From Promethearchaeia archaeon (GTDB lineage: Archaea > Asgardarchaeota > Lokiarchaeia > Sigyniarchaeales > SOKP01), in NCBI GenBank assembly GCA_029856145.1, contig JAHQWK010000002.1, positions 181,936 to 245,935 of the forward strand: DNA of 64,000 bases, read 5' to 3'. The translations under genes and the position numbers were made by a program. Of this stretch, positions 2,839 through 25,632 are shown piece after piece. Below the pieces are notes generated by a model. The model was not told the origin of the DNA, ran no database searches, and worked only from the letters and a program-made list of their open reading frames with translations. Numbering within the stretch: the stretch's first letter is position 1; every line of letters begins with the position of its first letter.

Positions 2839-3981
2839 TTAGAAAGCATAATAAAAAATATATACTACTATTATTGTTAATGCATCATAAACCCCATGAG
2901 TTAAAATTACTGCTATTAAATTCTCATTTCTCCAATAATAAATTAATCCTAAAAATAATGATATTATAAAGTAAGGAATAAATGATAGAACAAATGAAAT
3001 AAGCAAGAGTATTGGTGTATCTAAAAACAAAATAACTATTCCCAATACATGAATCATTGCGAAAACGAATGCTGTTATCAATATTCCTCCCATATTTCCT
3101 AAATTCCGCGTTAATCCTTTTTGCATAAATCCTCTAAATAATATTTCTTCAGAAGTTCCTATAATTAATATCATTATTAAAGATAAGAGAATTAAGCTGA
3201 GAATATCTCCTTCTGAGATGATTATTTCAACATCACTGGTAGTACTACTGAGATCCCTTATAATCTCAACTCCAAAAAAAAACTCCAATGTTATCTCAGT
3301 TAAAAATGAAACCATATAAACTAATAATACTCCTGCCACAGCAAATCCCAATCCTATTAAAATTTCTTTAAATAATCCTTTTCTAGTTAATCCTTTTAGA
3401 GTAAATCCTAATAATCCTAATCTATTTTTCAAAGAAGGATTTTTGAGATATTTCCCTACATATAATACAGGAACTAGTACAAAAATCAATTCGAAGAAAG
3501 AACTAAATATTATGAAATACGGATTTGCTATAAAATCAAATAAAGACTCTAAATTGAAAGAAAAAAAAATCATTATAGCAACGAGCCCAGCAATAATAAA
3601 ATCCATTAGAAGAAAAGCCCCCAGGGATACTCCAATAGACGGCATTGTCCCCCATAATTCAAGATTTTTTGTATTAATTATATCATCATCAGAAATTTTT
3701 TTCGACTTATAAGAAACTGAAGGTACGTAAGGTTGGGGATATTTTTTTGGCAGAATATAAGGATTTATCGATTTCGTTGGTTTTAATTGTTTATATTCTT
3801 TGAGATAATTAAGATCCGTCCCACAATTAATGCAAAATTTAAGTTTCTGAATTTTTGGAATTTTATTACCACAAACAGGACAAAAAGCCCAAAATTTATC
3901 ATTTAACTCTTTTCTATTATTAGAATTGGAGAATTTTTGCTCATTGTTAGGATCTTGAATTTCTTTATCAGTCATTATCAA
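2839..3981 (-). CDS. CPBP (CAAX/Abi) family intramembrane metalloprotease with N-terminal zinc ribbon
   Basis: EEILFRG, FAMIH, HGVYD motifs; CPVC/CINC ribbon. Confidence 0.9.
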   Translation of the reverse strand: MIMTDKEIQDPNNEQKFSNSNNRKELNDKFWAFCPVCGNKIPKIQKLKFCINCGTDLNYLKEYKQLKPTKSINPYILPKKYPQPYVPSVSYKSKKISDDDIINTKNLELWGTMPSIGVSLGAFLLMDFIIAGLVAIMIFFSFNLESLFDFIANPYFIIFSSFFELIFVLVPVLYVGKYLKNPSLKNRLGLLGFTLKGLTRKGLFKEILIGLGFAVAGVLLVYMVSFLTEITLEFFFGVEIIRDLSSTTSDVEIIISEGDILSLILLSLIMILIIGTSEEILFRGFMQKGLTRNLGNMGGILITAFVFAMIHVLGIVILFLDTPILLLISFVLSFIPYFIISLFLGLIYYWRNENLIAVILTHGVYDALTIIVVYIFYYAF

Positions 3982-4060
3982 TTTACAGAAAGATATTTAA
4001 TTACTAAAAGCTTTACATTTCAAATTAAAAATTACTAAAAGAAGTCTTCAAAATTGACTT

Positions 4061-5974
4061 TTAAATTCCAATTCTCATAAATTTAAAAATCCTATTAATT
4101 TCAATGTCACTTTGAAAAATTCCTGAATTTAATACTGGATGATGGCTGTATTTAGCAAGTTCTTCATCCCTTTCAACTTCTAATTCAAGTTTTATTGAGG
4201 GCATCCAAAATGTTTTATTACTATGTTGGTATTCAACCATTACCATATAAAGAAAGTTCCCTATTTTTTTCGGAATAATTTTAGTTTTGATTTTTGTTAT
4301 TTCATTAGCTTTTAACCGTTTAATGCTTGTATACTCTAACTTAGATTCAAATGAATCAGACATAAAAAAGTAAATCTTTATATCCTTAATTTCACTAAAG
4401 TTAGGATTCTCAATGGAAACTGTTATGATTTCTGATTGATCTAACTTTAATTTTTTATTTTGTACTTTGAGATCTATAAAAAGAGGGTATGCTACAACTT
4501 TTTCTTCTAAATTAAAACTTAAATTAATAAGTTTTTTAAGATTGGGTTTTAACTTTAAACTAAATTGATTTTTTTGTTCTTCTAAAGAAAGAACTTGTTT
4601 ACTTCTCGATTCTTCAAACTGTTGAAACATGTGATTAATATACTTTAAGATATATTTATCAAATTCTGAGTGTTTGTTTGATATTAACGAAATTAATTTC
4701 TTGTAATATTCTGCTTCAAGATCTCGAAGCAAAGGTTTCTCGAAAATATCCTTGATAAAATTTTTTAAGAGCTCATCTAATTGGATTAAACCATTATATT
4801 CAATTTCAAATTTCTCAATTTTCTTTCCATTCAACTTATTATCTTGCAAAATATCACTTATTGAATTCAATACTTCAACAGATTCAGAGTTATAGGCATC
4901 AAGAGCCTTTAATATCATTTTTTCTAAGAGATTATTGAATTTTTGAACATTTTTATTTTTGTACCTGATGAATTCTGTACGGTAAGATTCTAAATATTTA
5001 ACTAATTTTCCAGAATGCAGTTTTAAAAGGCTTCTTTGATATCTTTGATATCTTTCAGAAACATTTTTAATCCAATTTCGAACACTATTTAGTTTCTCCA
5101 TATTTTCTTCAGTATTAAATATAAGATTCTCTTCCAAATTATCTGTAGATAACAATGGGCAATCAATTTTTACTTTCTCTAATACTACACATGTATCGCG
5201 CTCTAACTGATATATGTTTTCAATTTGATTATATAAATTAAATTTCTGAAAATCATCTGCTTTGATTTTAATTAGCTTATCAAGTAAATCTTCTAATTTA
5301 TCGGAATAAAATTTCGGATTCTTGTTTAAGATTCTTCTTAATATTGAGGCAAATTCAGAAAGAATAACATACATATCTTTTTTCTTATAAATATTGGAAC
5401 TTGTATTTTCCAATTTAATGATATTACAAAAATCCACGATATTTTGATAGTTTTTCTCGGCAAGTTGATAGTATTTCGCACAATTCTCAAGATATAATGA
5501 GTTTTTTGCCAAATAACTATAATATAATCCTAGTAATGATTTATTGATAATAAAGGAATAATCTCTGAACTCTTCATATTTCTTTCTATTTTCATCATTT
5601 TTTATATGGGGTAATATGAATTCCTCAATAATTATCTCAAAATTACCCGCAGAACGAATTGTATAGAATAATTTTAATGGATCAACATTTATATTATCTA
5701 ATTTAGTAATTATTAAATGCCTATATTCATTAAAATCAGATTTAAGATTATAGAAAAAGGTTTCAATTAGAGATTTTCTTCTCTCGAGTTCTGAATCTTT
5801 AACTATTTTTACAGTTTTAGATAATTTAAGATTTAATATTTCTGCTAAATAATATTTAAAAGAATAGATTGATTCCATATATAAAGTTTTTGCCTCACAA
5901 TAAGGACACTGGGCAACAGATCCTTTTAAAATCGCTAAACTAGACCCACATTTCTTGCAAGGCAAATACCGCAT
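4061..5974 (-). CDS. Hypothetical protein: N-terminal zinc ribbon, long helical region, C-terminal Ig/CARDB-like beta domain
   Basis: CKKC...CPYC; C-terminal ITVSIENPN...IKRLKANE...IIPKKIGNF...VEY pattern. Confidence 0.7.
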   Translation of the reverse strand: MRYLPCKKCGSSLAILKGSVAQCPYCEAKTLYMESIYSFKYYLAEILNLKLSKTVKIVKDSELERRKSLIETFFYNLKSDFNEYRHLIITKLDNINVDPLKLFYTIRSAGNFEIIIEEFILPHIKNDENRKKYEEFRDYSFIINKSLLGLYYSYLAKNSLYLENCAKYYQLAEKNYQNIVDFCNIIKLENTSSNIYKKKDMYVILSEFASILRRILNKNPKFYSDKLEDLLDKLIKIKADDFQKFNLYNQIENIYQLERDTCVVLEKVKIDCPLLSTDNLEENLIFNTEENMEKLNSVRNWIKNVSERYQRYQRSLLKLHSGKLVKYLESYRTEFIRYKNKNVQKFNNLLEKMILKALDAYNSESVEVLNSISDILQDNKLNGKKIEKFEIEYNGLIQLDELLKNFIKDIFEKPLLRDLEAEYYKKLISLISNKHSEFDKYILKYINHMFQQFEESRSKQVLSLEEQKNQFSLKLKPNLKKLINLSFNLEEKVVAYPLFIDLKVQNKKLKLDQSEIITVSIENPNFSEIKDIKIYFFMSDSFESKLEYTSIKRLKANEITKIKTKIIPKKIGNFLYMVMVEYQHSNKTFWMPSIKLELEVERDEELAKYSHHPVLNSGIFQSDIEINRIFKFMRIGI

Positions 5975-6156: not shown

Positions 6157-7917
6157 TCAATGAGTAAAATAACAATAGAGATGATCATCTTCACACTTTA
6201 TAGGGTTAACAAATCCGAACCGTTCGAATTGAATTGTTTGGTTCATAGGTATTTCTAAAAGATTTAATTCCCCCTTTCCTTTTGATAAAATCCCGTCGGG
6301 ATTTAAAATTGAAACATTAATATTTTCATCTTTGGGAACCCATTGTATAATTGAAAACTCTCGATCTAATTCCTTACTATGATATGATGCAAAGATTGTA
6401 TTTTTATTCAAATCAACGGAATTAATCTTGATATTCATCAAATCTTTTAACCGAACAACCTGATCCTTTTTAAAATTTTTCGCATCAGATAAAGCAATTA
6501 ATATATTCGATTGGTTGTTTTTTATAATGCATCTTATGCTTCTTTTTCCTTTTTTTGGTTCAGTCGGATGTAAGAGTGGCTCTGCAATATATTCTTTTTC
6601 GGGAATGTTATCAATAATAGTTAATATTGGATTTTCAACATAAAAATATCTATTAGAGATTTCATCTATAATATCTTGATTTTTCGAATACAACCAATTT
6701 ACAGAAAATGTTATTCCTGATTGAGACATGCCCAGTTCTAATAAGGTTTGTCTTAAAGCTTCTGGTCTTATCCCACGTTTTTTAAGAGATTGTAAACTCC
6801 ATGTCCTGGGGTCTTCCCATCCTTCATATTTTCCATTCTGAATATTATTTCTTGATTTTGTTTTACTTAATTTCATATCAGCAAAATTAAGTCTTCCATA
6901 ATAAAGTAATTCAGCTTTTCTCCAACCAAAATGATCCCAAATAAATTCCTCTATAATACCTTCTTTGACTAAATCGATACCTCTCAATATGTGAGTTGCA
7001 CCTATTAAATAATCGTCAATTGCCCAGGAATATTCTAACATTGGCCACACAACATATTTATTACCTACTCTTGGATGTTCTGCTTCAGAAATCCTCATTA
7101 TGATTTGATCTCTTAAAGCGGGATCTTTTTGATCCATTCCCGTTTTTAATCTTACTACAACATCACCTTCAGAGTATTTTCTATTGAGCATAGCTTTCCA
7201 TTCTTCTAAGTTTTTTTCAATCGTTTGATCCCGATGAGGGCAATTTATCTTTTGTTTCTTATATTTTTCCCGAAATTCGTCAGCAGAACAAAAACAAACA
7301 TAAGTAATATTATCTTTAATTAATCTTTCGCAATAATCATAAAAAATATCTAATCTATCACTTTTATAGAATATTTTGCTATATTTTACACCTAACCATT
7401 CTAAACCGTCTTTTATTAATTCATAAGCTTCTGGTAAAACATATTTAGCTTTAGGACTATCCCGTAATGATTTAGGACTCCCAATTGTATCATCATAAAA
7501 AAGAATAAGTTCACCATTATATTTTTTAATATACTCATGGTTTAATATGATCATTCTAGCATTTCCTATGTGTAATGCACCACTCGGGTAAGGGGCTAAA
7601 CGCATAATAATTTTTTCAAATTTAGTAAGGTTATGTAATTCTGGTAATTCTTTTTTTTCTTCTAACTTTTCTTTTCTATCCAAGGCGTGAGGATCCAACT
7701 TTAATAACTGTTTTTTTTGTTCCTCAACTGTTAATTTTAAAATTTCATCTATAACTTGATCCAGTATGGGTTTAATACCTTTAGTTTGGGTTCTTAAATC
7801 AGGTCTAGAAGCGATTATTTTTTTCATAATTGCCTTTTTGTCTGGGTGTCCATTAAATTCTACAGCATTTTTCAAACTATATAACCAAACCATTTGCTTA
7901 ATATCTCTATCAGACAT
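6157..7917 (-). CDS. gltX: Glutamate--tRNA ligase (archaeal type)
   Basis: RLAPYPSGALHIGN (HIGH), THILRGID, KLSKT (KMSKS), QFERFGF. Confidence 0.96.
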   Translation of the reverse strand: MSDRDIKQMVWLYSLKNAVEFNGHPDKKAIMKKIIASRPDLRTQTKGIKPILDQVIDEILKLTVEEQKKQLLKLDPHALDRKEKLEEKKELPELHNLTKFEKIIMRLAPYPSGALHIGNARMIILNHEYIKKYNGELILFYDDTIGSPKSLRDSPKAKYVLPEAYELIKDGLEWLGVKYSKIFYKSDRLDIFYDYCERLIKDNITYVCFCSADEFREKYKKQKINCPHRDQTIEKNLEEWKAMLNRKYSEGDVVVRLKTGMDQKDPALRDQIIMRISEAEHPRVGNKYVVWPMLEYSWAIDDYLIGATHILRGIDLVKEGIIEEFIWDHFGWRKAELLYYGRLNFADMKLSKTKSRNNIQNGKYEGWEDPRTWSLQSLKKRGIRPEALRQTLLELGMSQSGITFSVNWLYSKNQDIIDEISNRYFYVENPILTIIDNIPEKEYIAEPLLHPTEPKKGKRSIRCIIKNNQSNILIALSDAKNFKKDQVVRLKDLMNIKINSVDLNKNTIFASYHSKELDREFSIIQWVPKDENINVSILNPDGILSKGKGELNLLEIPMNQTIQFERFGFVNPIKCEDDHLYCYFTH

Positions 7918-7985
7918 CTATGGTAATCATCTAATTTTGTTTCTTCTAAAAATATTAAATATTAAAAATTAATTTAAAATAAATT

Positions 7986-8951
7986 TCATAATTTAGAAAG
8001 GTTTTGAATGATTTCATTAGTTTCTTTCATGATTCGTTCAATTAAATCTTTAACTGTAGGTATATCGTGAATAAGACCTACACCCTGACCAACAGAAACT
8101 ACACCAACATCTAAATTGCCTTCATCATACATTAACCTTGATTTAGCTCCAGCAGCAGCATTAAATATTTCCATTTGGTCACTTTTTGAAGTTTCTAATT
8201 CGAGAACTTTTTGTGCTGCTTGATTATTCCATACTCGATGAGTAGCATTAAGCGAACGCATAATAATTATTGTATCATAGATTGTAGCATTTAAAAGAGC
8301 TTGTTTTAAGTTCTCATGAATGGGACATTCTTGTGTAGCTAAAAGACGAGTACCTATTAGTGCAGCTCCCGCTCCTAACGCTAATACTGCAGCTATACCT
8401 CTTCCATCCGAGATACCCCCTCCAGCTACAACAGGGATATCTAAAGCATCAATAGTAGCAGGTGTTAATACGAGTGTTCCAATATCAAAACGTCCTGTAG
8501 CACCCCCATTTTCCCAACCAACTACTTCTACAATATCAGCTCCTAATGAAGCGGCTTTTTTCGCATATCTCACACCAGCACATTTGTGAATCCAAATTAT
8601 ATCATTTTTTTTGAATAAAGGAATATATTTATCCGGAGCTTGATGACCAGAAGTTTCAATAATCTTGACTCCTTCATCAATCATCACTTTAACTAAATCA
8701 ATTTGCTTTATTGGTCTTAGCATAGGAAATAAATTTACATTTACTGCAACTGGTTTATCTGTTAAATCTTTTAATTCGTTTAATGCTTGACGTAATGGTT
8801 CGGGTTTACGAAACATCACGGAAGCCAGAATTCCAAGGGCACCAGCATTTGAACAAGCAGCGGCAAATGAGGGATAACTAATATTCATCATATTTCCACA
8901 GAAAATTGGATATTTTATACCTAACATTTCTGTTACTTTTGTTTTTAACAT
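7986..8951 (-). CDS. Nitronate monooxygenase / FabK-like flavin oxidoreductase
   Basis: LGIKYPI, GWENGG, PVVAGGGISDGRG, GTRLLATQEC. Confidence 0.9.
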   Translation of the reverse strand: MLKTKVTEMLGIKYPIFCGNMMNISYPSFAAACSNAGALGILASVMFRKPEPLRQALNELKDLTDKPVAVNVNLFPMLRPIKQIDLVKVMIDEGVKIIETSGHQAPDKYIPLFKKNDIIWIHKCAGVRYAKKAASLGADIVEVVGWENGGATGRFDIGTLVLTPATIDALDIPVVAGGGISDGRGIAAVLALGAGAALIGTRLLATQECPIHENLKQALLNATIYDTIIIMRSLNATHRVWNNQAAQKVLELETSKSDQMEIFNAAAGAKSRLMYDEGNLDVGVVSVGQGVGLIHDIPTVKDLIERIMKETNEIIQNLSKL

Positions 8952-9053
8952 AAATCTACCACTTTTTTTAGAACATGTTATAAGAAATTAATATAATTAA
9001 TAGAACTATTATTATAAAAAATATAAAATTTCATTTTATCAGATATCGCAATT

Positions 9054-9731
9054 TTACGCAAATAGACTTATAATATCGGCGACGTTAATCTCTGTTAGAT
9101 CTTTAATAATTAATTGAGCACCAAGAAGTTCTTCTTTATCATGTGTCGTTGTAAGGGCAATCGAAATCATTCCCGCTCGTTTAGCTGCTTCTATACCAAC
9201 TGGAGCATCTTCAATAACTAAACAATTTTTTGGATTGATGTTTAGGATTTTAGCAGCATTTAGAAACACATCTGGTTCAGGCTTCCCATTCTTAACATCA
9301 GCTGCTGTAATAATAACGTCAAAATAAGCTTTGATTTTTAGCTGAGATAATAATAACTCCACATTTTCAGGTGGCCCACTTGAACCTACAGCCAATTTGA
9401 AGCCCTCTGATTCTAATTCTTTTATAATTCTTAATACCCCCGGCAAAGGTGTTAACTTTTCTCTTACCATTTCCCGATAATATTGCTCTTTAAGACTAGC
9501 CCATTTTTCAACAATAACTTTATCTACTTCTGGACCTAATAATTTTCGAGTAATTGTGGGTGATTGTTGACCAAAGGTTTGTTCAAACATATCTCTTGTA
9601 AAATTTACACCAATTTCTGCTGCCATTTTAACCCAGCTTTCAAAATGAATGGGTCCAGTATCTGCTAGAACTCCATCCATATCGAAAATAACACAATAAT
9701 CACTAAACATAGTTTTAACTATAAAGAACAA
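9054..9731 (-). CDS. HAD-family phosphatase (beta-phosphoglucomutase-like)
   Basis: FDMDGVL, GKPEPDVF, IEDAPVG. Confidence 0.9.
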   Translation of the reverse strand: MFFIVKTMFSDYCVIFDMDGVLADTGPIHFESWVKMAAEIGVNFTRDMFEQTFGQQSPTITRKLLGPEVDKVIVEKWASLKEQYYREMVREKLTPLPGVLRIIKELESEGFKLAVGSSGPPENVELLLSQLKIKAYFDVIITAADVKNGKPEPDVFLNAAKILNINPKNCLVIEDAPVGIEAAKRAGMISIALTTTHDKEELLGAQLIIKDLTEINVADIISLFA

Positions 9732-9790
9732 TTAGATAATTTTTATAGAGAATCATTAATTTTTAAGAATTACAAATAGAAAATTATAAT

Positions 9791-9895
9791 AGTCCGGTAG
9801 TCTAGTATGGATAGGGCGCTGGCTTGCGGAGCCAGATATCGAGGGTTCAAACCTCTTAGCATATAGCAAGGAGGGAATATATCCCCCCCGGGCTA
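9791..9895 (+). tRNA. tRNA-Arg(GCG) with a 30-nt non-canonical intron (9851-9880) at position 58/59
   Basis: Acceptor AGTCCGG/CCGGGCT-A; anticodon arm CTGGC-TT GCG GA-GCCAG; BHB central helix GTTC/GAAT with bulges AAA and ATA; splicing restores the TTCAAAT loop. Confidence 0.9.
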
Positions 9896-9932
9896 CTAAC
9901 TTTTAAATTACTTGGTTAATATTTAATTTAAT

Positions 9933-10703
9933 TTACTCAATAATATCTAAGATTTCTAAAATATTATTGATTTTTCGTAGATTTGATACATTAATTTCCT
10001 TTTCAAAGGGGAATTTATATTTTCTTTCAAGTAAAATTGATTGTATATTGGCTCTTTTGGCACCAATAATATCGGCATATTCATCTCCACACATAATTAC
10101 TGAATTAGCATGATCCTTTAATCCCATCTGTTCGAGAGTGTAGAGAAATATGTTAGGATCTGGTTTTCTTTTTCCATATTTAGCAGATGTCAGAATAAAT
10201 TCAAAAAATTTTGCTAAGTCATGTTTTTTTAACATATTTTCTATAGTCTGGTGATTAGGATGATTGGAAATTAAAGCAACTTTTACATTTTTTTTTGTTA
10301 ATATTTCTAATGTTTCTCTTGTGTTTTCAAAGGGTTCCCACTCATCTTCCTCGCAAGAATGGTAAATATCAGCTAATTTATCATATGTATTCAAATCTAT
10401 ATTATCAATATTATTGATAATGTGTTCTTCTCTAAGCGATTCTAATACATTTTGAAAAATCAACGATGTTGGAAATTCAGTTTTAGTTTTAATGCTTTTT
10501 CTAAAAAAATGTTGTCTACTTTTAGCAAATTTCTTAACAAACGACTCGTTCGATAATTCTTCACTCCAGACTCGCTTTTCTTTCAAAATGTCAATGGATT
10601 TCAACAATCCTTTTTTAAAACATTCATAATATCTTTCAACCGAAGGATTGTCAAAGTAGAATAGGGTAAAGCCAAAATCAAAAATAATTCCTTTAACGGT
10701 CAT
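9933..10703 (-). CDS. HAD-family hydrolase
   Basis: IIFDFGFTL, ISN, KPDPNIF, GDEYADIIGA. Confidence 0.88.
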   Translation of the reverse strand: MTVKGIIFDFGFTLFYFDNPSVERYYECFKKGLLKSIDILKEKRVWSEELSNESFVKKFAKSRQHFFRKSIKTKTEFPTSLIFQNVLESLREEHIINNIDNIDLNTYDKLADIYHSCEEDEWEPFENTRETLEILTKKNVKVALISNHPNHQTIENMLKKHDLAKFFEFILTSAKYGKRKPDPNIFLYTLEQMGLKDHANSVIMCGDEYADIIGAKRANIQSILLERKYKFPFEKEINVSNLRKINNILEILDIIE

Positions 10704-10841
10704 ATTGTTAATAATTATAAAAATTGATTCGTAATTTTAATTTATCTAAAATAAAATGTAAGTAAGACAGATTCGTTTCTGTTAAATACTTAATAACAAA
10801 CAAATTATTAATATAGGTATTTAATATAACTGAGAACCAAG

Positions 10842-12588: not shown

Positions 12589-14013
12589 CTAATTAAAATT
12601 TGGTCTTTTTTTTTGCCAAGGAGCTATTTCTTCAAAAGCTTGTGAAACTTGTAATACGAGCAAATCATTGAACCTATTCCCAATTATTTGCATTCCCGTC
12701 GGTAATCCTTCATTAGACCAACCACAAGGAATGGATGCTGCTGGATGACCTGTTAAATTAAACGGGAAAGAAAATGGCATCCATGCAGTGGGTGATACAT
12801 TTTTTTCATTGATTTTTGGTGGATACATAATTCCTAATTCAAAAGGAGGAATAGCTATTGTAGGGGTTATTAAAATATCATAATTTTTGAAAAATTTATA
12901 AAATGTCTCATAAATTTTGGTACGTTGACTCATGGCTTTCATTACATCAAGAGCTGAATAACCAATTCCCGCGTCAACCATTCTAACCAATTCAGGATCC
13001 ATTTTTTCTCTCCAATCCTTTAATTTTGGTTTTAAATCAAACGCATAATCCGCTGTATATAATGTGTAAAAAGGTATTTCTGGTTTTCTCATTTTAAAAT
13101 TCACATTTTCAACGCTCCAACCTAATTCTGCAAATTTTTCAGCGGAGTTAGTAACATTTCTCGCAACATCAGGGTCAATTATTTTTGCATAGCCTAAATC
13201 TAAGGAATAGCCAATTTTTAATTTCTCTGGTTTTTTTGAAATATTATCTAGATAGCTAATTTTTTCCTCTGGTAAGCTATATCTATCTCCATCATGAGGT
13301 CCTTTTATAGTATCCAACATCAAAGCTGCGTCTCTTACATATCTAACTATAGGACCTACATGAACATAAGATTCAGCATGAAGCTCTATTCTAGGATATA
13401 CTGGAACTCTCCCTAGACTTGGCTTATGCCCAAAAACACCACAACAACTGGCAGGAATTCTTATTGAACCACCACCATCATTTCCTAAAGTAATTGGGCC
13501 TAAACCTGAAGCTACAGCTGCAGCTCCACCTCCAGTTGATCCACCTGGTATTCTATCTGTATTCCAAGGATTCCGAGATTCACCAAATACAAGATTATGA
13601 GTAACACCGGCATACCCAAATTCGGGTGTATTTGTTTTTCCAAGAAGTACAATTCCTGCTTTTTTTAAACGTTTTACGACGACTTCATCATTCTTAGGAA
13701 CATTGTGTTCATAGATCATACTTCCAAAAGTAGTTCTAATATCTTTAGTCAAAAATAAATCTTTAATAGAAGTTGGAACACCATGTAATAACCCCAGTTT
13801 TTCACCCTTTTTAACAGCTTCATCTGCTTTTTTTGCCATTTCCCTTGCGGTATCGAAGGTAGGAGTGCAGTATGCATTAATTATAGGATTAATTTTTTCG
13901 ATCCTTTCGATTATAACTTCAGTAATTTCTTGTGAAGTTAATTCTTGTCTTAGTATAGCATCTTTCATGTCACAAGCAGACATAAAACAAATATCTTCTT
14001 TATTCATTTTCAT
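12589..14013 (-). CDS. Amidase-signature family amidase
   Basis: GVPTSIKD, GKTNTPEF, PGGSTGG, GNDGGGSIRIPAS. Confidence 0.93.
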   Translation of the reverse strand: MKMNKEDICFMSACDMKDAILRQELTSQEITEVIIERIEKINPIINAYCTPTFDTAREMAKKADEAVKKGEKLGLLHGVPTSIKDLFLTKDIRTTFGSMIYEHNVPKNDEVVVKRLKKAGIVLLGKTNTPEFGYAGVTHNLVFGESRNPWNTDRIPGGSTGGGAAAVASGLGPITLGNDGGGSIRIPASCCGVFGHKPSLGRVPVYPRIELHAESYVHVGPIVRYVRDAALMLDTIKGPHDGDRYSLPEEKISYLDNISKKPEKLKIGYSLDLGYAKIIDPDVARNVTNSAEKFAELGWSVENVNFKMRKPEIPFYTLYTADYAFDLKPKLKDWREKMDPELVRMVDAGIGYSALDVMKAMSQRTKIYETFYKFFKNYDILITPTIAIPPFELGIMYPPKINEKNVSPTAWMPFSFPFNLTGHPAASIPCGWSNEGLPTGMQIIGNRFNDLLVLQVSQAFEEIAPWQKKRPNFN

Positions 14014-14570: not shown

Positions 14571-16064
14571 CTATTTTATTTTCTTTAAATTTAATGGAGT
14601 CCCATCATAGATATATTTTCCATAAACTAATTCTTGAGGGTAATATTTACAACCCGCGGGATAAGCAGAATCTTTAATGCCGCCTAGTGAAACAGTAATG
14701 TCAACCAGCATAGGTCTGGCATTTATGTAAATATTCGCAGCTTCTAATTCATTCTTAAAAATCTCAATATTTTTCAAGTTAGATGTATAAACAACTGCTC
14801 GCATACCATAATTACTCGCATTTGCTAACCTTATTGCATCTTTCATATCGTTAGCTTTAGTAATAGAACGAACTGGTCCAAAAGCCTCTTCTCGCCACAA
14901 AAATGGAGCTTTAGTTAAATCTTCACATAATTCAGGTTTTATTTCTACCAAAGTAGGTTTGTAAAATAACCCATAATCTTCACCCGTATCGACTTTCTCA
15001 CCACCTGTGTAAATTTTAGCGTCGTATTTTTTTGCATCAGCTACCATTACCTCCATCATCATCAAGATTCTCCTACTTCCCAATGGACCAATATCTACAT
15101 CAGGATCGGTGGGATCTCCATATTTTAACTTTTCAATTTCTTTCATAAGACATTCTACATATTCGTCGTATATATCTTTGTGGACTATAATTCGCTTCAT
15201 CGAGAAGCATTGTTGTCCAGAATTAGTATAACTAGCCATTGCATTCCATTTAGCTACTAGTTCTAAATTTACATCATCCATAACTATTCCCGCGTCGTTT
15301 CCCGCACATTCGAAAAAGAATTGTTTAAATGGCTGAGTATACATAGGAACTCCCATTGATTTATCAACAGTTTTCTTCAGGAATCTACCATAACGAACTA
15401 AGATATCTTTTGCTGTATGAGACGCTGTAATCGTCATCAAAGTTTTGATTAAAGGAGATTGGAGAAATTCATCCACTGCCCATTCCCCAGGAGCTATAAC
15501 CAAACCTAAAGCCCCGAGAGCAGGAAGATCCATTTCTTCCATTATAGAATAAGCTTCTAACATAGTTAATGGACAAGCTGTGGATGGTTTAACGATGGCT
15601 CCATTACCAACTAAATAATTGGCGCCCAATTGATAAAGTGGTAGACTTATAGGAGTATTACGAGGAGAAATGCATGCTGCTAAACCATGAGGAATATATC
15701 TTATTCTGGCGAGTTGTTCTCCTTCTATGCTTGTTAAAGGTTTTTCCTCTATAAATTGATAATACCAATCACAGAATTTGAAACCATTAGTTACAATATT
15801 CAATTCCCATTCCGAATATTTGATTGGTAGTCCCCCTTCTGCTACAATCAAGTCTTTTAATTGTTTTTTTTTGAATCGTAATTTACTTGCAAATTTAGAA
15901 AGGAGTTGGGCTCGTTCAAAAAAATCCATTTCATTTAGCAAATGTTGATTTTTATGAATTTTCTTTATTTTTTCTCGAACTGTTTCTGGTGTGTCCGCAG
16001 GAATAGTTCTTATAATTTCACCAGTGTATTTATTTTTTATTTCCAATTCTTGAACTTTTGACAT
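14571..16064 (-). CDS. Aldehyde dehydrogenase family protein (divergent)
   Basis: PRNTP, VKPS, FECAGND, NSGQQC (catalytic Cys), EEAFGPV. Confidence 0.92.
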   Translation of the reverse strand: MSKVQELEIKNKYTGEIIRTIPADTPETVREKIKKIHKNQHLLNEMDFFERAQLLSKFASKLRFKKKQLKDLIVAEGGLPIKYSEWELNIVTNGFKFCDWYYQFIEEKPLTSIEGEQLARIRYIPHGLAACISPRNTPISLPLYQLGANYLVGNGAIVKPSTACPLTMLEAYSIMEEMDLPALGALGLVIAPGEWAVDEFLQSPLIKTLMTITASHTAKDILVRYGRFLKKTVDKSMGVPMYTQPFKQFFFECAGNDAGIVMDDVNLELVAKWNAMASYTNSGQQCFSMKRIIVHKDIYDEYVECLMKEIEKLKYGDPTDPDVDIGPLGSRRILMMMEVMVADAKKYDAKIYTGGEKVDTGEDYGLFYKPTLVEIKPELCEDLTKAPFLWREEAFGPVRSITKANDMKDAIRLANASNYGMRAVVYTSNLKNIEIFKNELEAANIYINARPMLVDITVSLGGIKDSAYPAGCKYYPQELVYGKYIYDGTPLNLKKIK

Positions 16065-16124
16065 ATATTCTAATTACCTTTTTAATCATTAATGTTAATT
16101 TTAAAATCAGCTTTAAAAAAAGTT

Positions 16125-16604
16125 TCATTTACTATCTATATCATCATCATTTTCGAGGATACCTGCAGTTTGAGCAAATTTACCATAACCCATATCAATT
16201 AGGATTTGCGTTCTTTTATGTAAAACAAAATCAATCCATCCTTTTTTCTCGTCTGGATCGTTATAAAAAGATCCTAAAAGTTGAGCATATTCTACCTTCG
16301 TATCTGTTTGTATTAATTTTTCAACTGCATCTATCGAGAGTGCTAATTCCAAATCTGAGTCAACAGCGCTCCCCGGTTTTATTTCAATCCCATTTCCATT
16401 TCGATAGACATTAAAAATATCTACGGGAGAAACCTTATCATAGGCTTCAAGTGAATCGTAAAGGGCAAAATCAAAGTCTGACCCATTAACTAGATCAGAA
16501 AAAATTTCAGGATATTTTGCTAGAAATGTGGTGTATTTTTTTGCAATTTCTGTCTTATATGCTTTTTTATCGATAATTTGACTCGTCATTTCTTCTTCTA
16601 ACAT
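16125..16604 (-). CDS. Hypothetical protein, possibly SCP2-like; paralog of 14151-14558
   Basis: SDLELALSIDAVEKLI...ILIDMGYGKF. Confidence 0.65.
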   Translation of the reverse strand: MLEEEMTSQIIDKKAYKTEIAKKYTTFLAKYPEIFSDLVNGSDFDFALYDSLEAYDKVSPVDIFNVYRNGNGIEIKPGSAVDSDLELALSIDAVEKLIQTDTKVEYAQLLGSFYNDPDEKKGWIDFVLHKRTQILIDMGYGKFAQTAGILENDDDIDSK

Positions 16605-23335: not shown

Positions 23336-23511
23336 TTATTTCATTAAATTAATTTATTACATTATTTCCATAAATTTTTTTACCACAAAACTTATTGTTC
23401 TGTTTTGTTACACCCTCAATCACAAATTTTTCTTCCCTAGTATATTAATACCATCATTTTCTTATTACAATAGAGTAAAGAATCTTAATAGCAGGCGTTT
23501 TGGTGTAAAAA

Positions 23512-25632
23512 ATTTCCGTATCCTCAATTGATCCTTCATCTATAGATACTCTTATAGAAGAGTTAAAAATCGCAACAGGAATGAAATTTGAACATTATCA
23601 AAGAAAATTTCTTGAAAAACGTATTGATTTTAGGATGAAGAACTTAAATCTAAATTACTATCAAGATTACATAAAATATATTCGTGAAAATCCTGTTGAA
23701 GTTGATTTGTTTTTAGATAAATTTACGATTAACTATACTTATTTTTTTAGAAATTATAATATTTTTAAGAATTTCGAGAATTATATCAAATTCTATGTCA
23801 GTTACACCAATAGACCACTTCGTATATGGTCAGCGCCTTGTGCTACTGGAGATGAACCATATACAATAGCAATGATATTAGAGCAGATGAAAAAGAATAA
23901 TAAAAATTTTCCTGATTTTGAAATTGTAGCTTCAGATATTGATCCCGCTGCCCTTAAAGTGGCAAAAGAAGGGATTTATGGAGAGTATCCAGTACATGAA
24001 ACTCCAGAGAACTATTTGAAGTCTTATTTTTCAATACAAGACACTGAACTCGGTCCAAAATTTATTTTATCCAAAGAAATTAAAGATAAGGTTGAATTAA
24101 TTCAAGAGGATATTATTAAGGGTCATCAAAAAAAAGGAAAATATGATTTTATTTTTTGTAGAAATTTCTTTATATATATAAATCAATTTGCAAGGGAAAA
24201 GTTATTACAAACTTTAGAATCACGGCTTTATGATGGAGGATTATTAATTTTAGGAGGTTCAGAGAGACTTCCCCTTAAAAATAGTAATTTTAAGTCAATA
24301 AATATAAGAGATCGTTTTTATGTTAAAAATTTAACTACTCAAAATGTTGTTTTTAAGAACAAGGTTCATAATCTATTTAAAAGTTACAAAGTTTCTAAAC
24401 CTGAGATCAAAAAGCCAGCAAGGAAACATTTAGAACACGCTACTGATGAGGATGTAAAAATAATCCACACAAAAGCACTAATTAAAACAGTTCCTAAAGA
24501 TCTTTCAAATAAAGTAAAAATTTCTGAAAATGAAATTAAGAAGAAAAAGTCTAAACCTGATAAAGAAATCAAAGAATTAAATAAGCTTGAAAGTATAGAA
24601 ACAGAAGTTAAGATAATTGGAATTGAGATTAATAATGGTTCTAACGGAAATGGCACTAAACTTCAAAATAATCAATTAAAAGAATCTATGAAAGACATTA
24701 GAGAAGAATCTAAAATTTCTTCACTTAAACATTGGGAAAAAAAATTAAGGCAACGAGAATTGCATGTGGAGCAACGTGAAAAAGCTATAGAAGAGAGGAT
24801 TACCTACATAGATGAAAAATATAATAAAATAGAAAGAAAAAGAAAAGAAGTAAACGAATTAGTTAATGAACTTAAGGAAAAAGAAGAGGAAGTTAAAAAT
24901 AGGATAGAAATTTTAGAGCGCCTCACTAAACGAGTAGAACAAAGAGAAAGACTAATAGAACAAAAAGAAAAACAATTTGAACGCAGAATAAGACAAGTAG
25001 GAGATTATACCAGACAAGTTGCACAACAAGAAGTTCAAATAAATGGATTTTCAAAAGATTTTATAGTAAACGAAGAAAACATTAACAAATATGAAGAAAA
25101 ACGCATGGATCGAATTGATAAACCAAATGAGAAAAAGGAATTAAATATTCCTATGGGATACTATGGACTAATTAATTCTTTCGATAAAAATGATGTTGCT
25201 ACTAATTTTGTAATAAAAGGTTTGGGATCAGGTATATCTTTAATTCTTAAAGATTCAGTGACTAATATTTTTGCTTTATCCCATATGTCATTACCTTCTT
25301 CATCAGCCTCAAAACAAGGTTATCATTTCCTTTTCCCTCATACATTTGTAGATACTGCAGTTAAAGATTTATATAATAACCTATTATTTCATGGTGCTAA
25401 AAAAACAAATATTCAAGCTTTAATGGTGGGAGGCGCAAAATTATTCCTAGACTATGATATGACATATCAAGAAAATATTGATGCTGTAAAAAAGCAATTA
25501 AACACATTTCAAATAGAAGTTGAAGCTGAAGATTTGGGTGGATTAAGTGAAAGAGCAGTTATTTACGATACAATAAATGATGCACTTTATGTTAAAAAGA
25601 CTTGGGAGTTTGAGTATAGAAAAATTAACTAG
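23512..25632 (+). CDS. CheR methyltransferase-coiled coil-CheD-like fusion protein (probable ATT start at 23512; first ATG at 23581)
   Basis: CheR: TINYTYFFR, IWSAPCATGDEPY, ASDID, FCRN. CheD: GLGSG, SHMSLP, FVDTAV, VGGA, EDLGG..R. Confidence 0.88.
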   Translation: MSVSSIDPSSIDTLIEELKIATGMKFEHYQRKFLEKRIDFRMKNLNLNYYQDYIKYIRENPVEVDLFLDKFTINYTYFFRNYNIFKNFENYIKFYVSYTNRPLRIWSAPCATGDEPYTIAMILEQMKKNNKNFPDFEIVASDIDPAALKVAKEGIYGEYPVHETPENYLKSYFSIQDTELGPKFILSKEIKDKVELIQEDIIKGHQKKGKYDFIFCRNFFIYINQFAREKLLQTLESRLYDGGLLILGGSERLPLKNSNFKSINIRDRFYVKNLTTQNVVFKNKVHNLFKSYKVSKPEIKKPARKHLEHATDEDVKIIHTKALIKTVPKDLSNKVKISENEIKKKKSKPDKEIKELNKLESIETEVKIIGIEINNGSNGNGTKLQNNQLKESMKDIREESKISSLKHWEKKLRQRELHVEQREKAIEERITYIDEKYNKIERKRKEVNELVNELKEKEEEVKNRIEILERLTKRVEQRERLIEQKEKQFERRIRQVGDYTRQVAQQEVQINGFSKDFIVNEENINKYEEKRMDRIDKPNEKKELNIPMGYYGLINSFDKNDVATNFVIKGLGSGISLILKDSVTNIFALSHMSLPSSSASKQGYHFLFPHTFVDTAVKDLYNNLLFHGAKKTNIQALMVGGAKLFLDYDMTYQENIDAVKKQLNTFQIEVEAEDLGGLSERAVIYDTINDALYVKKTWEFEYRKIN

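Follow-up and report, generated by a model that had tools for sequence, protein, structure and literature searches.

The window analysed here, a stretch of 64,000 nucleotides, belongs to contig C2 of a Lokiarchaeial assembly (3.55 Mb, 32 contigs, 97% complete) and is AT-rich, with a G+C content of about 28%. On its forward strand, a single protein of 706 amino acids is encoded, closed by a TAA stop, in which a CheR methyltransferase, a linker, a long helix and a CheD domain without its nucleophile (pseudo-CheD) follow one another (Table 1). An earlier note, made from the sequence, had described a CheR, a linker, a coiled coil and a CheD joined in one polypeptide, and Pfam, AlphaFold and Foldseek all agreed with this layout. 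The open reading frame matched the Pfam families CheR (PF01739, E 1.6e-45, 155.4 bits against a cut-off of 27) and CheD (PF03975, E 2e-15, 57 bits against a cut-off of 25). In the AlphaFold model, built from an alignment of 90 homologues, residues 1-290 formed the CheR part and residues 530-706 a CheD fold, both with pLDDT about 90, and between them lay a disordered segment (residues 291-401) and an uninterrupted helix (residues 397-510). A protein search returned more than 110 full-length homologues of 600-740 amino acids with 32-79% identity, all of them from Asgard metagenome genomes. The upstream neighbour had been read as a longin-like and winged-helix gene; the longin-like assignment was not confirmed, and the winged-helix one was backed by weak Pfam matches only. 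A functional tie between this neighbour and the fusion was rejected, since the neighbour was intact wherever the fusion had decayed. The 101-aa open reading frame downstream gave no significant Pfam match.

Table 1. Features of the fusion gene, in positions of the window.
Feature	Position	Strand	Basis
Whole gene, CheR-linker-helix-pseudo-CheD	23512..25632	+	ORF, translation, Pfam, more than 110 full-length homologues
Start region: GGTG, in-frame TAA (23506-23508), AAA, ATT (23512)	23502..23514	+	Same in G201, G336 and independent contigs
CheR, N-terminal helical and SAM-dependent methyltransferase domains, residues 1-290	23512..24381	+	Pfam, 5ftw, invariant columns, AlphaFold, Foldseek
Disordered Lys-rich linker, residues 291-396	24382..24699	+	pLDDT below 30; low column identity
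Linker island EVKIIGIEINNG	24601..24639	+	Column identity 40-80%
Helix of 114 residues, residues 397-510	24700..25041	+	AlphaFold, pLDDT up to 92; heptad count
Pseudo-CheD, residues 530-706	25099..25629	+	Pfam, 2f9z_C, Foldseek; many columns with at least 90% identity
Gly574 codon, at the position of the CheD nucleophile Cys	25231..25233	+	Alignments, independent contigs
His591 codon, His of HxxLP	25282..25284	+	2f9z_C alignment; Asn/Tyr in 22 of 90 homologues

The frame is open for 707 codons (23509-25632, forward strand), and its first ATG, at 23581, would yield a protein of 683 amino acids. Between the in-frame TAA and this ATG, no ATG, GTG or TTG was found in frame. The Pfam match to the N-terminal CheR domain (CheR_N, PF03705) was partial, and when the protein was read from ATG 23581 it began at profile position 17. 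The homologues encoded 23-31 residues ahead of the Met that matches ATG 23581, and such residues were conserved in this sequence. In the AlphaFold model the residues before the first ATG folded as helix 1 of CheR_N (helix 8-22, pLDDT about 88), and the N-terminal helical domain of CheR was complete only when translation began at ATT 23512. Two other species (G201 and G336) have the same arrangement, TTG-GTG-TAA-AAA-ATT-TCC, followed by synonymous changes, and independent contigs of the runs X4 and X7 carry an identical start region. Since TAA-AAA-ATT is kept in two species and the residues preceding the first ATG fold as a CheR_N helix, ATT 23512 is the simplest reading of the sequence and the probable translation start. 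No RNA data set was listed for this stretch; contigs of 250 nt in two runs labelled metatranscriptomic were identical to parts of the gene, and were flagged as probably DNA.

The N-terminal 303 residues aligned with B. subtilis CheR (5ftw) with an E value of 2.7e-35, and the modelled domain superposed on the same structure with a TM score of 0.90 in Foldseek. The motifs TINxTxFFRN, IWSAxCxTGxEPY, ASDID, CRNxxIY and GGxLxxGxSE were all kept with respect to 5ftw, and the SAM-binding and catalytic columns were invariant or nearly so across the 90 homologues. The linker that follows contains 23 Lys in 106 residues and is poorly conserved. One island of 12 residues within it, with the family consensus EVRITGIxVNNG, stood out from a background column identity of 10-30%; it was predicted to be disordered by AlphaFold and may be a short binding motif. 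The Glu-rich helix runs through 16 unbroken heptads, in which 94% of the “a” positions are hydrophobic and the “d” positions are mainly Arg or Lys. It is probably a dimeric coiled coil with an unusual core, and because of the charged “d” positions it is not certain that it forms a classical one.

The C-terminal 163 residues aligned with T. maritima CheD (2f9z_C) with an E value of 7.7e-17 and 32% identity, and the two domains superposed with a TM score of 0.89 and an rmsd of 2.1 Å. In this alignment the Cys of GLGSC in 2f9z_C paired with the Gly of GLGSG in the fusion, and the His of AHVMLP paired with the His of SHMSLP, as the earlier note had read from the motifs. Among the 90 aligned long-fusion homologues, the nucleophile column contained Gly 75 times, Ser 12 times, Glu twice, Asp once and Cys never, and the His column contained His in 68, Asn in 12 and Tyr in 10. 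The missing Cys is not an artefact of sequencing or assembly, given that this column contains no Cys at all and that the Gly574 codon was identical in contigs of two independent metagenome studies. Apart from the lost Cys, the domain retains the CheD motifs GLGS, HxxLP, GGAxxF and GGxxxR, and across the homologues GLGS, the Pro of HxxLP, GGAK(L)F and GGxSER were nearly invariant. A Phe corresponding to F102 of B. subtilis CheD, a residue located at the CheC-CheD interface (PMC3513319), was kept in 74 of the 90 members. In B. subtilis, binding of CheD to CheC and to the receptors outweighs its deamidase activity for chemotaxis (PMC3513319). Judged by these alignments, the CheD domain of the fusion has no catalytic activity and is expected not to deamidate MCP glutamines; the loss of Cys is ancient and shared by the whole family.

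The earlier note had described the gene as an orphan, with no other chemotaxis gene in the window. The second part is correct, as no other che or MCP gene was found in the window and all other matches in the host genome were on other contigs; the first part is true only locally, because the genome encodes a che cluster and MCPs. The cluster lies on contig C3 and comprises CheW, CheY, CheA, a CheW-CheC/CheX fusion of 659 amino acids, two CheB, a CheD and a CheC-like open reading frame, which is the complete set elsewhere in the genome that the note itself had said would make the gene a conventional component. The CheD of this cluster has 179 amino acids and carries GLGSC and SHILLP, i.e., it is Cys-bearing. 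A third CheB was found on C28, a stand-alone CheR on C29, and four MCP genes on contigs other than that of the fusion. The MCPs carry two to three strict methylation sites each (e.g., SASSEQQTAS and TASMEEITAT), in which EQ and QQ pairs are included, and a C-terminal pentapeptide was absent from all of them. In this genus, the fusion is distant from the che cluster and stands amid unrelated housekeeping genes. A study of Ca. Lokiarchaeum ossiferum and other Lokiarchaeia reported genes for chemotaxis and putative receptor arrays and does not mention the fusion (PMC9834061), and we found no description of it in the open-access papers searched.

Two of the host MCP genes (C9:134746-135108 and C24:95940-96128) lie in frames of about 277 amino acids (256 from the first Met in one of them) with consensus methylation sites. 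This type recurs at 276-277 amino acids in many genomes of the genus, and its members are probably soluble receptors. In the che cluster, four genes had no function assigned by Pfam (3909-4742, 7914-9935, 9985-10836 and 12975-13520 of locus L016, which covers C3:32000-51999); they encode 277 amino acids, a 673-aa DUF11 protein, 283 and 181 amino acids, respectively. Their order within the che cluster is fixed in four other genomes from three genera, and they are candidates for the output of the pathway.

Full-length fusions were confined to one family among 301 genomes sampled from the phylum, with three candidates scored per genome. A wide spread over the Asgard archaea, which the submitters' labels on the homologues (Thor-, Odin-, Hod- and Hermodarchaeota) had suggested, was rejected, since in this sample, with three candidates scored per genome, full-length fusions occurred in one family only. 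In the genome G356 of genus g4, 2 kb separate the fusion from a complete che cluster, and a CheY-like gene precedes the fusion. This gene (15914-16285 of locus L018, contig C8) encodes a 124-aa receiver; it is the immediate upstream neighbour of the fusion, and the che cluster is on the other strand. Three genomes of genus g5 (G362, G363 and G364) have the fusion as the direct neighbour of cheB, alongside their che cluster, and in G362 it overlaps cheB by 4 nt. The fusion is the sole gene with a CheD domain in four g5 genomes (72-97% complete), and the only other CheR in these four is a giant protein of 1100 amino acids. Most genomes with a long fusion also retain a separate CheR and a separate CheD.

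The 135 genomes of the family were then searched with the C-terminal half of the fusion, CheW and MCPsignal. The fusion and CheW were found together in 38 genomes, a count to be read qualitatively, as the genomes are related rather than independent samples and co-occurrence counts overstate the case. Six genomes (81-98% complete) had no CheW match and the fusion was reduced to fragments in each; an MCP match was also missing in five of them, and the sixth (G252) has one. The remnants are at the syntenic locus, with the same neighbours as in the window, and these neighbours are intact with 62-95% identity. The deletions differ between genomes: residues 300-597 are gone in G132 and residues 89-458 in G252, and G323 and G156 retain no more than the final 100-120 residues. 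Since deletion remnants persist beside intact neighbours in all six, the gene can be dispensed with in genomes that gave no CheW match and, with one exception, no MCP match either.

In five other genomes, the fusion was intact and a CheW match was absent, as was a CheA match. All five have MCPs plus CheB and/or CheR, with CheB in four and a canonical CheR in three. Because several of these CheB, CheR and MCP genes sit at contig ends, the che cluster of the five genomes is probably merely unassembled; they may otherwise represent a kinase-independent use of the fusion. Given the full che cluster and MCPs in the host genome, the synteny in other genera and the decay in relatives without CheW, we conclude that the fusion belongs, as a conserved component, to the chemosensory system of one Loki-type Asgard family and is not a repurposed orphan.

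We consider it likely that the fusion acts as a Lokiarchaeial chemosensory adaptation enzyme, in which CheR would methylate glutamates of the cell's own MCPs and the dead CheD would serve for docking. The note had proposed that the pseudo-CheD is a binding adaptor for the methyltransferase. This idea is sensible, given that the domain retains every other CheD signature motif as well as the Phe at the CheC contact; delivery to a substrate other than an MCP, which was part of the same proposal, is disfavoured, and the MCPs are the favoured substrate. As a docking module, the dead domain would be akin to the substrate-trap version of a cysteine hydrolase. Its partner could be the Glu/Gln adaptation helices of the MCPs or the CheC domains of the CheW-CheC array protein. 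Docking would hold CheR at the receptor array, the 114-residue heptad helix would probably dimerise the protein, and the helix together with the flexible linker of 110 amino acids could let CheR reach neighbouring receptors. With CheC as the partner, CheY-P could govern the position of CheR, and this would couple methylation with the CheC/CheD adaptation loops.

In E. coli, CheR tethers to the NWETF pentapeptide of the receptor, and this flexible tether keeps CheR locally concentrated at the array. The logic proposed for the fusion is the same, except that the tether would be on the enzyme instead of the receptor. The CheR fusion may point to a way of tethering receptor methylation unlike the E. 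coli pentapeptide, and it adds a defined and testable part to the chemosensory system of the Lokiarchaeia, a group in which receptor arrays have been seen (PMC9834061).

A more specific version of the docking reading is possible, and we offer it tentatively: the CheD domain would either read the receptor adaptation site or bind the CheC domains of CheW-CheC in a CheY-P-dependent manner, which would merge the two adaptation loops in one protein, and the fusion would be the sole adaptation methyltransferase of the pathway in some Lokiarchaeia. Neither archaellin (PF01917) nor CheF (PF04283) was found in this genome. If the reading is true, the pathway could act on the architecture or surface behaviour of cells that are related to the eukaryotes.

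An alternative places regulation first, with the CheD-like domain mainly modulating CheA activation through receptor binding, or competing with the canonical CheD for CheC, and with CheR serving mostly to localise it. This assignment of roles agrees with the B. subtilis protein, which works in chemotaxis by binding rather than catalysis (PMC3513319), with the conservation of the pseudo-CheD, which equals that of the CheR domain, and with the separate CheR and CheD kept in most long-fusion genomes. The invariance of the catalytic and SAM motifs of CheR over 90 sequences argues for a working enzyme instead, and in genus g5 a canonical CheD as competitor is missing, as is any further CheR of the che type. 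We therefore regard it as unlikely.

The fusion could also be a repurposed module independent of the che system, as the note had supposed, which methylates its own Glu/Gln-rich coiled coil or another coiled-coil protein that is not an MCP. The lack of che neighbours in this genus, the Glu-rich helix and the five fusion genomes without a CheW match would fit such a role. In its strict form, the MCP methylation consensus ([ASTG][ASTG]xx[EQ][EQ]xx[ASTG][ASTG]), which is present in the host MCPs, was nevertheless found in none of the 90 family members, and a loose form occurred in 25 of the 90 at a position that is not conserved, which speaks against the self-methylation that the note had suggested. 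The helix was modelled as straight and single, not as an MCP-like hairpin. Other genera have the fusion within or next to their che clusters, it decays in the six CheW-less relatives, and the five CheW-less exceptions retain MCPs plus CheB and/or CheR, so we consider the repurposing of the module highly improbable.

It is equally hard to credit that the CheD domain is still a hydrolase with another nucleophile, such as Ser573 or a Ser/Thr at the Cys position: Ser does take that position in 12 of the 90 homologues and Thr or Ser in the long fusions of g5, and the His is kept in 68, but Gly occupies it in 75 including this protein, the His has become Asn or Tyr in 22, and in G308 the CheD motifs are almost wholly degenerate and the domain nevertheless persists.

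Compared with the CheR of B. subtilis (5FTW) and Salmonella (1AF7/1BC5), the fusion shares the two-domain fold, the SAM-binding and catalytic motifs and a genome with MCP, CheB, CheA and CheW; it differs in about 420 extra C-terminal residues, and the MCPs here are without the pentapeptide tether. With the CheD of T. maritima (2F9Z) and B. subtilis it shares the fold, the four motifs and the CheC-contact Phe, whereas it has Gly for Cys, has lost the His in about a quarter of its members and is fused behind a CheR. A C-terminal module for protein interaction is also present in the CheR-TPR fusions (PMC3447774), most of which are found in chemosensory pathways with an output other than flagellar motility (PMC3447774). 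In place of TPR repeats, the module here would be an inactive enzyme domain that stems from the chemosensory pathway itself.

The nearest counterparts are short CheR-CheD fusions, which also carry CheR and then CheD in one polypeptide. They differ from the long fusion in having 450-520 amino acids, a linker of about 40 amino acids and no long helix, and in keeping GLGSC and HxxLP. In genus g7 of the same family, the short fusion was found in three genomes (loci L030-L032; G270:C28, G304:C146 and G305:C267), with open frames of 467-512 amino acids, a linker of about 40 amino acids, and GLGSC and SHILLP retained. Bacterial short fusions with both Cys and His were found as well (P0117, P0118 from Aeoliella, and P0121). 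By its motifs, the CheD of the short fusions is probably an active deamidase, and a CheR-CheD fusion thus occurs naturally with a CheD that looks catalytically intact. The g7 protein, with its Cys and His, looks like the precursor state of the long fusion, and the order from short to long is a likely evolutionary path. The series from a short, presumably active fusion through a long, dead one and degenerate motifs to deletion remnants would make a clear case of pseudoenzyme evolution. The family is also a natural experiment on binding versus catalysis in CheD, as it offers a nucleophile-less CheD in many species and as the sole CheD in one genus.

Proteins of 1100-1340 amino acids with an N-terminal CheR domain were observed in many genomes of the family (G138:C167, G159:C112, G071:C30, G083:C22, G276:C16, G177:C12, G030:C31, G174:C20, G135:C25 and G186:C300). 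In several of these genomes CheW and MCP were absent or present only as fragments or below the cut-off (e.g., G071, G083 and G138, with weak matches in G030, G177 and G276). These large CheR proteins would be independent of the che system, and would be better candidates for a repurposed CheR than the fusion.
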